From Endomicrobiales bacterium (GTDB taxonomy: Bacteria; Elusimicrobiota; Endomicrobiia; Endomicrobiales; CAWCFT01), in the NCBI GenBank assembly GCA_963794945.1, contig CAWCFT010000001.1, positions 352,001 to 416,000 of the forward strand: DNA of 64,000 bases. The letters run 5' to 3'. Positions 34,088-38,661 of the stretch are shown here, in pieces. Position 1 is the first letter of the stretch, and each line of letters begins with the position of its first letter. A model generated the notes under the pieces. The model made no database searches. It worked only from the letters and a program-made list of their open reading frames with translations, and was not told where the DNA came from. The position numbers were made by a program, and so were the translations under genes.

Positions 34088-34160
34088 AACAAATGCAATG
34101 ACGGTAAGTAATAGGTTTATCACAGCTGTCTGGACAAATGTCGCCCTAAAACTATTATTT

Positions 34161-34251
34161 TGTCATTTCGATCCCGCCTTGGCGGGAGAGAAATCTTTAA
34201 GTCAATTCAAGGATAGATCTCTCATCCGCCTTCGGCGGATTCGAGATGACA
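34161..34251 (-). repeat. REP-like palindromic element, copy 2 (inverted relative to copies 1 and 3)
   Basis: TGTCATTTCGATCCCGCCTTGGCGGGAGAGAAATCT-spacer-AGATCTCTCATCCGCCTTCGGCGGATTCGAGATGACA. Confidence 0.85.
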
Positions 34252-34293
34252 GCAATAAAATGATTTGTATTCCAAACAAATGCGATGGTGTAG

Positions 34294-34972: not shown

Positions 34973-35548
34973 ATGGATAAGAAAACAAATAACATATACA
35001 TAATAGCGGGCTCAAATGGCTCAGGGAAGACCACATTTGCAAAGAGATTTCTTCCAAAATATGCTAAATGTCCTAATTTTATTAATGCCGATCTTATCGC
35101 GCAGGGGTTGTCACCTTTTGAGCCTCAAACGGCGGCCCTGAAAGCTGGAAAAATTGTTTTACAGCAAATTGAAGAATTTTCTGCCCGTGGTTTGGATTTT
35201 GGTTTTGAAACAACTCTCTCTGGTAAATCATATGTAAAGTTGCTTGATGATTTGATTAAGAAGGGATATGAACTGCATTTGTACTATCTCTGGATACCTG
35301 ATACGCGATTGGCGATAGAGCGCATAAAGGGCCGGGTATTAGAAGGCGGGCGCAACATACCTGATATAGATGTTCGTCGGCGCTTTACGCGCAGTATATC
35401 CAATTTCTTCAGGTTATATGAACCTCTATTGAGCACATGGATGATGTTCGATAATTCGGGGCAGGAACCCGAATTAATCGCAAGAGGAAATAATGGACAA
35501 ATTGCGGTGGCAAACAAAGAACTATTTGAAGCTATAAAGGTGAGGTAA
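34973..35548 (+). CDS. zeta-toxin-like P-loop kinase/ATPase
   Basis: IIAGSNGSGKTT, FINADLIA, FETTLSG, RIKGRVLEGG, FDNS. Confidence 0.8.
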   Translation: MDKKTNNIYIIAGSNGSGKTTFAKRFLPKYAKCPNFINADLIAQGLSPFEPQTAALKAGKIVLQQIEEFSARGLDFGFETTLSGKSYVKLLDDLIKKGYELHLYYLWIPDTRLAIERIKGRVLEGGRNIPDIDVRRRFTRSISNFFRLYEPLLSTWMMFDNSGQEPELIARGNNGQIAVANKELFEAIKVR

Positions 35549-35554
35549 AATAAA

Positions 35555-35707
35555 ATGATAAAAAAAACTGTTTTACAAGGCAAAGCCGAAATTGCAATGA
35601 AAGAAGCGGTGAGGGAAGTAATCGAACAACACAAAAGAACCGGCCGTACGTTGGCTGTGTGGAAAAATGGCAAGGTCGTGCATTTGTCGCCGCGTTCTAT
35701 AAAATGA
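35555..35707 (+). CDS. 50-aa partner protein (putative antitoxin-like)
   Basis: SD GAGG, ATG at 35555, MIKKTVLQGKAEIAMKEAVREVIEQHKRTGRTLAVWKNGKVVHLSPRSIK-stop. Too short to appear in the ORF track. Confidence 0.7.
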   Translation: MIKKTVLQGKAEIAMKEAVREVIEQHKRTGRTLAVWKNGKVVHLSPRSIK

Positions 35708-35825: not shown

Positions 35826-35866
35826 TGACACGAAGTGTCATCCCCGAGCGCCTAAATCGGGGATCC
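35826..35866 (+). repeat. partial REP-like element
   Basis: TGACAC-GAA-GTGTCA hairpin running into TGTCATCCCCGAGCGCCTAAATCGGGGATC, the same arrangement as at 31828-31890. Confidence 0.6.
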
Positions 35867-35876
35867 AGCAGTATGT

Positions 35877-35912
35877 AAGCCACATTCGCGCGCCGCGCGG
35901 TGTGGTTTTTTT
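35877..35912 (+). terminator. intrinsic terminator upstream of the ParB-like gene
   Basis: AAGCCACATTCGCGC-GCC-GCGCGGTGTGG followed by T7. Confidence 0.75.
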
Positions 35913-35972: not shown

Positions 35973-36005
35973 GAAACTACATTCTCAATAGGAGGGCAAT
36001 AAACC

Positions 36006-37655
36006 ATGGCAGATGAAGTACGGATGATCAAGTTAAGCCAAATTGTTGTGCCGGCGCATATGCGCAAGCATAGCCCTGAAAAGACGGCCGAACTGGCTAA
36101 GGATATTAAAGAGCACGGCCAGCTTCAGGATGTAGTTATCACACCTATGGGGGATGGAAATTTTGAGCTTTTGGCTGGCGCCAATCGTTATGAGGCCATG
36201 AAACTAAACGGCGCGGACGAACTCCGGTGCCTGGTCAAAGAGAACGTTTCACCGTACGAAAGGTCATGTATTACCCTGGCAGAGAATCTCAAGCGGGAGG
36301 ACGTCTCCCCTGTAGACCTGGGGTTTGAGCTAGACAGGGCCATGAAAACCGGCAACAAAACCCAGGAAGAGCTGGCAAAAGACCTGGGTGTGACGCAAGG
36401 CTATATAAGCCAATATGTGGTAACTACTGATCTTTCTGAGCCTGTCAGGGAAATTATTAAACGTTTAATAATTGGCATAGGCATCATAAATCAGATAGCC
36501 CGCCTGGCTGGTGACGAGGCCAAAATAGCCATGCTTGAAAGGTGCGAGAAAGAGGGCCTTTCAGTAAAACAGGTTGAAATTTTAGTCAATAAAGCGTTAG
36601 CAGCTTCGCCCAGCCCCGCCGGTCAGGCTGAGGCAGTCAATAAAACTGATGGCGGGACAGACCCAAAGCCCAAAAAGGCAGGCAAGGGCGGAAAGGGCCA
36701 CGCAGGGGATGTCCGCATAGTTAAGACAGGCAAAGTTATATGCCTGCAATACTTCTTCAATGAAGGCACTCCCCCGGATGCCATCGCCAAACCCGTAACA
36801 AACAGGTACCAGCAATGGTTTGATGAGCAAGCCCAGCCAAAACCTGATCTCAAGGCCCAAAAGGCGCAGCTTCGCAAAAGCGAAAAGGAAACCGCTGCTA
36901 AGATAGCCAATGTTCAGAAACTTTTAAAGTTAGCGCAGGACCATGACAAAGGATTGGAAAAGGCAGGCCGTGACAGGACTGCCAGCCTGAAAGAAGTAGA
37001 GGACTTAAAGGCCGAACTTCAAACGTTGAAGTCACAGATCCGCCATGGAGGGGCAAATAGTAAACCCAACAAGCCAACACCGCAAGCCCCTACCCAGGCT
37101 CAAATAATGGAACAAGCTAAGAAGCTCAAAGAAGGCGGCCTGGGCGCAACTGTAGCCCAACTTGAATCTCAAATTGCTCAAGCGAAAAAGAGCCTTGAAG
37201 CTCCCGGCATAACCGACGCGCAAAAGGCCGGGCTAAATATGGCCATTCAAAATCTTCAGTCACAGCTTGATGCGCTAAGGAAAGACAACAATACAAATCC
37301 CAATTTCCAGATCCCAAAACAAAACGATAATAAATCCTCGCCCCTTGCGGGTAAGACTTTGGACCTTGAGGGCCAGACCGAAGGGCCCGAAAAGGAAGAG
37401 GGTAAGGGTGAGGGGGATGTTCTGGCGAACGTTGAAGACCAGAAAAAGAAAATGCTTGACTTGATAAACAGCGGCCGGATGTCACCTGAGGATATGGCAA
37501 ACGTAAAATCGCAGTATGAGGCCGCCATACCCCAAACCCAGCAGGATCTTGCTAAGCCGGAAACTAATGAAGCCAAAGCCGCCTATCTGAAAGCATGGAT
37601 ACAGATGATGCAGGAAGTAATCGAAGCGATCAAAAAAAAGTTGAGTGGGCAGTGA
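36006..37655 (+). CDS. orphan ParB/Spo0J-like protein with HTH and long coiled-coil/repeat C-terminus
   Basis: SD AGGAGG. Box I ELAKDIKEHGQLQDVVI, Box II LLAGANRYEA, Box III LAENLKREDVSP. HTH KTQEELAKDLGVTQGYISQYV. Confidence 0.85.
   Translation: MADEVRMIKLSQIVVPAHMRKHSPEKTAELAKDIKEHGQLQDVVITPMGDGNFELLAGANRYEAMKLNGADELRCLVKENVSPYERSCITLAENLKREDVSPVDLGFELDRAMKTGNKTQEELAKDLGVTQGYISQYVVTTDLSEPVREIIKRLIIGIGIINQIARLAGDEAKIAMLERCEKEGLSVKQVEILVNKALAASPSPAGQAEAVNKTDGGTDPKPKKAGKGGKGHAGDVRIVKTGKVICLQYFFNEGTPPDAIAKPVTNRYQQWFDEQAQPKPDLKAQKAQLRKSEKETAAKIANVQKLLKLAQDHDKGLEKAGRDRTASLKEVEDLKAELQTLKSQIRHGGANSKPNKPTPQAPTQAQIMEQAKKLKEGGLGATVAQLESQIAQAKKSLEAPGITDAQKAGLNMAIQNLQSQLDALRKDNNTNPNFQIPKQNDNKSSPLAGKTLDLEGQTEGPEKEEGKGEGDVLANVEDQKKKMLDLINSGRMSPEDMANVKSQYEAAIPQTQQDLAKPETNEAKAAYLKAWIQMMQEVIEAIKKKLSGQ
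36452..36473. repeat. perfect 22-bp palindrome within the ParB-like CDS
   Basis: AATTATTAAACGTTTAATAATT is its own reverse complement. Confidence 0.95.
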
Positions 37656-37680
37656 GCATAGCAGATTTTTGACTAATGGT

Positions 37681-38661
37681 ATGAATGTTATGCAAAAAAA
37701 AGAATTAAATGATTATTTAAATAACCTTAAAAAAAAGCACAACCTAAAAGAATGTTTTGCTCTAAACGCTGATTGTTCAGAAAATATCATTCAAGCGCAT
37801 TCTATACAAAATAACCGTATTTTAAAAAGAATATCTAAAGATGGTTTAATATTATATTTTGGGAAAGGCGATATTGATCGAGAAAATATGCAACCAAAGC
37901 AATTTGGCCGCAAAACCACATCGACATTTACAGGGTTTTGTGGTTATCATGATCAGAGAATATTTAAGCCAATTGACGACTTCGACTATGAGCAAGGAAA
38001 CGAGGAACAAGAATATTTGTTTTCCTATAAAGCTCTCGCCAAGGAATATCATACGAAGGCTTGTGCATTGTTTGTTGCGAACGAAATACTTGAGAAAAAG
38101 GAACTACCCAATTTCGATTATGAAACATATTATTGGTATATGGTTGGCACAAATAGGTCTTATGATCAGTTGTCGAGAATGCGTATTGCCTTTAATAAGA
38201 ATCTAGAAAGAAAACGATTTTACAAAATATTCACAAAAAGAATAGTTTTTGATGAGGTTTATCCGTTAGCTGTTAGTTCAATGATTTCTTTATCAACTGA
38301 TTTTCAGGGCAATAAAATAAACGATTTAGCGAATATGAAAAAAGATATTTTGCCAATATTTGTGACTATATTCCCTCAGAAAAATAAAACACACATACTT
38401 ATTCAATGCTTAAAAAAGGAAATAAATATATTTAACAAATTATTTAAACAATTTGATCAACCCCTGAATGACTTAAAGCCGAAATTATCTATGTTATTGT
38501 TAACTTACTGTGAAAATATGGCTATCTCTCCATTCCATTGGGACAAACTTTCAAAAAACCAACAAAATTTATTTGTTAGTGGTTTTTTGGAAAGCACTTT
38601 AGATTATACTGAAATTCAAAATTACAAGAAATATGAACAATGTAATTTATTTAACACGTGA
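37681..38661 (+). CDS. AT-rich hypothetical protein with HNH-like Cys/His motifs; start codon uncertain
   Basis: CFALNADC...IIQAHSIQNN...TFTGFCGYHDQRIF; visibly more AT-rich than its flanks. Confidence 0.6.
   Translation: MNVMQKKELNDYLNNLKKKHNLKECFALNADCSENIIQAHSIQNNRILKRISKDGLILYFGKGDIDRENMQPKQFGRKTTSTFTGFCGYHDQRIFKPIDDFDYEQGNEEQEYLFSYKALAKEYHTKACALFVANEILEKKELPNFDYETYYWYMVGTNRSYDQLSRMRIAFNKNLERKRFYKIFTKRIVFDEVYPLAVSSMISLSTDFQGNKINDLANMKKDILPIFVTIFPQKNKTHILIQCLKKEINIFNKLFKQFDQPLNDLKPKLSMLLLTYCENMAISPFHWDKLSKNQQNLFVSGFLESTLDYTEIQNYKKYEQCNLFNT

Follow-up and report, generated by a model that had tools for sequence, protein, structure and literature searches.

In Bacillus subtilis, the site parS-359 lies inside the parB (spo0J) gene itself (PMC4442127; strain lists in PMC8357415). 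The window (the whole 64,000-nucleotide stretch of DNA analysed here) contains a similar case, a ParB-family gene that holds a palindromic site likely to serve its own product. The two cases differ in that parS-359 is one of several copies of a fixed parS serving ParABS, whereas a site of the window type stands at a fixed codon in the DNA-binding domain, varies from almost every gene to the next and lacks an adjacent parA.

The specificities of ParB and Noc have been described at the level of single residues. R173 of ParB reads guanine 1 of parS, and Q158 of Noc reads adenine 1 of NBS; R186 of Noc reads guanine −6, and G201 of ParB makes no base contact (Jalal et al. 2020, PMC7383237). The window gene and its site share with ParB–parS and Noc–NBS the fold, a 16-bp core and the same residue–base rules at positions 173 and 201, and the pair is a hybrid, in which Q goes with the NBS-type outer base and G with the parS-type inner base. 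PMC7383237 describes two specificities, whereas 32 distinct sites are found in the present set.

Orphan ParBs are widespread and mostly uncharacterised (10.1101/2025.10.10.680097, presumably Kaljevic et al.), and the window gene resembles them in having a ParB-CTPase fold outside a parAB operon. In the main text of that study, the terms “palindrom”, “inverted repeat” and “intragenic” are mentioned 0 times and no sites are assigned. In ICEclc, the BisD–bisS system is a ParB-like clamp acting in gene regulation, with bisS sites inside the genes inrR and ssb (PMC12409273). No paper on co-varying intragenic sites at a fixed register, or on mixed arrays of such sites, was found in the literature outside subscription journals and supplements.

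The window gene would work like ParB–parS and belongs to the ParB protein family, but lies outside ParABS and Noc. A parA gene is adjacent to 0 of 39 palindrome-bearing genes, including this one; residue Q131 takes the place of R173, and the site is unlike the chromosomal parS. With the Noc model TIGR04285 the protein scores 92.6 bits against a cut-off of 315, and its residues Q-Y-D-G stand where Noc has Q-K-K-R. The score with the PRTRC ParB model (TIGR03734) is 57.1 bits against 278.6.

General Features of the Gene and Its Product

The gene occupies positions 36006–37655 on the forward strand, is preceded by a GGAGG ribosome-binding motif (35991–35995) and encodes a protein of 549 aa (P0001). 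By its N-terminal and HTH domain sequences, P0001 is assigned to the ParB/RepB/Spo0J family (TIGR00180, 72.7 bits, cut-off 58.45). The N-terminal domain of CTPase fold (36006–36296; PF02195, 38 bits, cut-off 26.3) retains intact GxxR (G58–R61, 36177–36188) and ENxxR (E93–R97, 36282–36296) motifs, named as in PMC12409273, and E93 and N94 are invariant across 54 relatives. Some ParB-fold proteins bind ATP or GTP (10.1101/2025.10.10.680097). The ParB-type HTH DNA-binding domain follows at 36297–36605 (PF17762, 43.5 bits, above the cut-off). The model of residues 1–200 has a pLDDT of 96, with Noc and Spo0J as the top fold matches. KorB, which together with OB is a ParB-like clamp used for gene regulation, is also among the fold matches of the P0001 model. 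The sites of BisD and KorB differ from the window site in that they stand within further genes of the mobile element concerned and the clamps have partner regulators; at the window gene neither a partner nor a mobile element is evident.

Alignment to the solved Noc and Spo0J chains provides the equivalences of two residues. Q131 (codon 36396–36398) is aligned with Noc Q158 and ParB R173, and G159 (codon 36480–36482) with ParB G201 and Noc R186. Positions 1 and −6 of parS and NBS become ±7 and ±2 when numbered from the palindrome centre, so Q131 is the predicted reader of ±7 and G159 the predicted partner of ±2.

After a disordered linker, a predicted beta-beta-alpha module (residues 235–276, 36708–36833; pLDDT about 60–83) occupies the place of the ParB dimerisation domain; no C-terminal-domain structure was found among the listed PDB matches. 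The structure model completes the protein with a tail of three predicted helical hairpins (36849–37643), the full-length model having a pLDDT of 82 and a pTM of 0.44. The last ~75 codons (37424–37655) are 80–85% identical in DNA to three paralogues, and parts of this C-terminal module also occur in non-ParB ORFs on contigs C15, C6 and C11. An ESM Atlas search with the tail gave a best value of 0.80 and no lead. A promoter scan returned 7 candidates against 8.0 expected, which is the chance level.

The Intragenic Palindrome

The sequence AATTATTAAACGTTTAATAATT at 36452–36473 is a loop-less, perfect palindrome of 22 bp (arm 11), the longest in the window. Its 16-bp core (36455–36470) is the likely self-loading site. 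The preliminary description had reported such a palindrome inside the HTH domain, coding IIKRLII about 10 residues after the recognition helix, and the analysis agrees: the palindrome spans the last base of E149 and codons I150–I156, 8–14 residues past the predicted helix (residues 131–142). It codes for the end of a helix and a turn. The earlier proposal that target and domain share nucleotides holds as to overlap and co-variation, but the base-reading residues are not encoded by the site, which sits between their codons, after Q131 and before G159. The invariant R153 (18 of 18 rows) is forced by the central CG of the palindrome.

Among 60 shuffles of the window sequence under an order-3 Markov model, none reached an arm of 11. 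Taken alone, the palindrome is less rare than the 0.015 occurrences per 64 kb initially estimated, as the 2.9-Mb genome (19 contigs, 85.87% complete) contains 15 perfect palindromes with an arm of at least 11. Because of these 15, length alone is modest evidence, and it is the position that speaks against chance: among 27 perfect palindromes with an arm of at least 10 genome-wide, eight lie in ParB-like genes, which make up 0.8% of the genome DNA, and five in mixed arrays. Given the peptide and the genome codon usage, the probability of 10/10 pairs at the window site is 0.002. The search for further copies, suggested earlier, found none within 3 mismatches in the genome at its 85.87% completeness. 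NBS occurs in many dispersed copies, and the window site, unlike NBS, is single-copy.

Conservation of the Symmetry in Related Genes

Symmetry was scored with codon R153 as the anchor in 104 of 107 ParB-like genes, a set drawn from the window's genome, its relatives and three metagenome loci, including a few nearly duplicate rows. At the exact centre the symmetry is bimodal, with at least 8/10 pairs in 39 of the 104 genes, at most 6 in 65 and exactly 7 in none. When families were set by protein motif (E < 1e-6), at least 8/10 pairs were found at the homologous codon in 38 of 41 non-canonical relatives, the other three lacking the palindrome, versus 1 of 56 canonical-motif ParBs; this single case (L121) is a palindrome-bearing gene filed as canonical by the motif rule. 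The palindrome-bearing genes contain 32 distinct 20-mer sites. The anticipated persistence of symmetry with compensatory changes is therefore borne out, since the non-canonical genes keep their pairs in 32 different sequences. With synonymous codons drawn by genome usage, the probability of the observed symmetry ranges from 0.0003 to 0.067 across the sites.

The 32 sites contain 20 mismatches, seven at the centre, 11 at the edges and only two (of 224 cells) at positions 2–8. This accumulation at centre and edges, sparing positions 2–8, outlines the 16-bp core. None of the 20 mismatches is G-T (G-U in RNA), which bears on the possibility that the palindrome forms an mRNA hairpin controlling translation or decay. 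The stretch does fold at −13.6 kcal/mol (z −1.92), and a different element, an RNA structure at the 5′ end of Caulobacter parB, sets the level of that protein (PMC13371061). Nevertheless, 8 of 200 shuffles fold equally well, positions ±2, which would lie in the loop, are paired in 32 of 32 sites, identical sites are present in non-coding arrays, and a hairpin would not follow residue 131. We regard this explanation as very unlikely.

The layout is widespread, since 70 of 146 protein representatives (146 of 151 were scored) permit at least nine pairs in the same register. At the protein level, the set P0074, P0077, P0095, P0123, P0132, P0135 and P0090 includes canonical ParBs with VSRGT at the exact register and, again at this register, IISREII in a Noc-like protein. 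The DNA coding for these peptides could be parS and NBS, respectively, which would give the same layout in canonical genes.

Covariation of the Site with DNA-Reading Residues

Within the DNA set, all 10 distinct sites of genes with Q at the R173 position have T at +7, and all 9 of genes with R have C, in both arms; H, P, K, D, G and E are also used at this position. At the 201 position, which was assigned by hand offsets in rows with indels, G goes with T at +2 (5/5) and R with G (1/1). Serine at this position occurs with all four bases, so the +2 rule is not general.

A tree was built from the DNA set and the protein representatives with the helix and site columns left out. The counts in this larger set are Q with T in 30 of 36 rows and R with C in 28 of 35, with no case of R with T and three of Q with C; 13 of the 71 rows with Q or R depart from the +7 rule. 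Seven independent pairs were available to the tree-based test, of which 6.6 changed in the same direction and 0.0 in the opposite one (median p 0.016). The residue–base association at +7 survives this test. The site thus co-varies, as had been proposed, with the HTH residues that read parS and NBS in solved structures (Q with T, R with C, G201 with T).

Two relatives illustrate the rule. L031, which is 49% identical and has the same helix, carries a site identical in 22 of 22 bases, while its 66-bp flanks match at 42 and 39 positions. L002 has the same helix and R instead of G159, and its site differs from that of the window solely at ±2.

The window 20-mer has 8 matches in 185,579 genomes. 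Three are intergenic, beside parA or parB, on two betaproteobacterial contigs: in the Comamonas contig the 20-mer flanks a parA–parB pair, and in the Acidovorax contig it lies near parB. The ParBs of both contigs have Q at the position equivalent to Q131. Three others of the eight (L144, L145, L147) have no ParB-like ORF nearby, and L148 and L149, which share an assembly, do not enter the tally as additional independent cases. The site also occurs inside a ParB-like gene of an Elusimicrobiales assembly. The 16-mer was found in 4 of 401 genomes of the phylum, and its two matches beyond the window's genome (G000) and G004 fall in housekeeping ORFs that are AT-rich and have no ParB-like gene in their vicinity. 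The 18-mer has 14 matches in viral contigs, none with a ParB-like ORF within 1.5 kb.

These data bear on two other explanations. Template switching, which homogenises the arms of inverted repeats (PMC7202029, PMC8604942), might perfect a chance quasi-palindrome and leave symmetry without function, and it is a possible one-step source of paired changes. It gives no account of one fixed codon position across 32 sequences, of the lack of a palindrome in 55 of the 56 canonical-motif ParBs or of covariation with a codon 66 bp upstream, and is extremely unlikely. Alternatively, the reader of the site might not be the gene's own product but a foreign protein, either the chromosomal ParB or a different paralogue. 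Paralogue sites are alike and the arrays mix them, as a foreign reader would allow, but the site bases follow residues of the same gene, and the canonical parS-like sites near dnaA differ in sequence, which makes such a reader very improbable. Hairpin, neutral template switching and foreign reader all fit the covariation poorly. Cognate binding, of the protein to the site of its own gene, is by itself highly probable.

Orphan ParB Genes Across the Genome

The window's genome contains 17 orphan ParB-like genes. The preliminary description proposed a single-gene system; the gene does stand alone, with no parA, but it is not a one-off, given the 17 orphan genes and the mixed arrays described below. 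In the window's subfamily, each of the eight genes has a palindrome at the homologous codon, and the eight sites differ from one another. One canonical parA–parB pair was found (C3), and a pair of parS-like sites, unlike the window site in sequence, lies 13 kb from dnaA on another contig (C18). The cumulative GC-skew minimum of contig C1 is near 310,600, with dnaA and the parS-like pair on a different contig.

A ParA gene lies within 1.5 kb of 0 of the 39 palindrome-bearing genes, for 33 of which 900 bp or more of upstream sequence was available, versus 50 of 58 others. Neighbouring genes are unrelated from paralogue to paralogue, and the paralogue tails are mosaics, partly common to non-ParB ORFs. 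On the tree, paralogues of eight genomes are intermixed, with 19 genome changes over 34 rows. No common flanking sequence that would mark a mobile unit was detected around the paralogues, and two protein queries found no relatives in viral contigs. The paralogues L056 (C8) and L067 (C17) are frameshifted, the break in the former being directly before its palindrome.

In a second subfamily the palindrome lies 30–50 codons past the helix, with at least 9/10 pairs in 9 of 17 genes versus 0 of 115 control windows, the 30–50-codon range having been picked after a first inspection of these genes. The second-subfamily genes of the window's genome (L058–L064) have a VRRY helix and the palindrome 35–47 codons on, in the linker.

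The main rival to a feedback model is that the gene descends from partition genes of a plasmid or prophage and acts as a one-gene centromere or selfish cassette, in which binding to its own site marks or tethers its own DNA and does not regulate the gene. The solo insertions among unrelated genes, the interleaving on the tree, the mosaic tails, the two frameshifted paralogues and the identical 20-mer by parAB in the betaproteobacterial contigs would agree with this. The missing parA, the lack of common flanks, the lack of close relatives in viral contigs with the queries used and the location of the chromosomal parAB and parS-like pair elsewhere speak against it. On balance, tethering or selfish marking is unlikely, and self-loading with feedback is the reading followed below.

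Mixed Arrays and Second Copies of Sites

Sites of the same format also occur in non-coding DNA. The region C12:26240–26720 (L066:2240–2720) holds at least eight different near-perfect palindromes within 500 bp, against at most four in 5000 random placements; one of them is the exact core of the site of the C1:22819 paralogue. A mixed cluster of second-subfamily sites at C4:421430–421570 (L069:2430–2570) includes the exact core of the C19 paralogue, and a further cluster at C10:15400–15470 consists of two sites. The window's own site has no array copy in its genome.

In G004, whose expansion is the largest among the relatives, there are four intergenic mixed clusters (L141:1430–1980, L169:820–940, L175:1390–1665 and L177:1500–1570), one containing the exact 22-mer of the window and another the L002 site. 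Their neighbours, judged by motifs, are presumably efflux, uvrC-like, glycosyltransferase-like and nitrogenase-like genes. A site-spacer-site unit is present three times in the C12 array and twice in G004, and the exact array spacer occurs in only these two of 401 genomes; in viral contigs the spacer has two matches, neither in an array. With the two search patterns used, no arrays were found in G003, G336, G284 and G353. In G284 and G366, which belong to one genus, a second exact copy of one paralogue's 16-bp site lies in an unrelated ORF (L181:1501–1516, L183:1501–1516); the site of another G284 paralogue has no second copy.

The majority of the array sites have no counterpart among the paralogues found in their own genome. 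The arrays raise a new, testable question, namely why a chromosome gathers sites for many clamps. A tentative answer, which we hold to be rather unlikely, is a lock-and-key arrangement on the genome scale: solo genes would each write a private address into their own DNA-binding domain, and host chromosomes would assemble intergenic “key-ring” arrays of many addresses, some of them for non-resident proteins. Such arrays would be common docking hubs or decoys, by which ParB-type clamps, resident or incoming, are captured, titrated or sensed.

Proposed Mode of Action

The sequence evidence suggests that the palindrome is likely the loading site of the protein encoded by its own gene, which would make the gene a self-contained reader and address. 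A P0001 dimer would bind the core at 36455–36470, and CTP would close it into a sliding clamp, as in ParB biology (PMC12409273). The clamp might then spread over the gene and its promoter, some 450 bp upstream, and would probably lower the transcription of its own gene. Surplus protein could load onto further copies of the site at other loci, and the variable helical tail would act there. The complete scheme, with self-loading, negative feedback and loading in trans at second copies, is somewhat favoured; it is a less certain proposition than cognate binding alone.

Since the reader codons and the site lie within 87 bp, reader and address are co-inherited; a private specificity can therefore evolve in each gene, which would explain eight sites in eight paralogues. 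Feedback is the weak step. Of the genes near the spreading chromosomal ParB of B. subtilis, V. cholerae and S. pneumoniae, few are affected, and in P. aeruginosa some genes are repressed (PMC7022226), so damping would not be automatic. It also counts against the scheme that a loop regulating only itself would bring the host no benefit.

If binding holds, the gene of an uncharacterised orphan ParB would itself reveal the target of the protein, and the 32 natural protein–site pairs would allow an immediate test of how the specificity of HTH domains branches out from the two states known so far. The pairs would also be candidates for orthogonal ParB/parS systems for labelling several loci simultaneously, and the central CG with its Arg153 would be a case of a protein segment shaped by a second job of the DNA.

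Neighbouring Genes

The end of the ParB-like gene is overlapped by an AT-rich ORF (37645–38661) of an unnamed widespread family with Cys/His motifs, whose nearest named cluster is SEC-C (in 18% of members). This ORF had been called HNH-like and named as a neighbour over which the protein might spread. The HNH-like identification is not confirmed, as no passing match was found in Pfam, NCBIfam, PHROGs or PADLOC; since, in addition, the neighbours differ at every paralogue, a functional link to the downstream gene is unsupported. Upstream of the ParB-like gene, at 34973–35704, lies a Zeta-toxin-like AAA ORF followed by a 50-aa ORF, possibly a bacterial toxin–antitoxin-type pair. Dispersed genome-wide repeats occur in the window at 34150–34255, 35850–35911 and 37334–37416, the last of these inside the disordered linker of the ParB-like gene.
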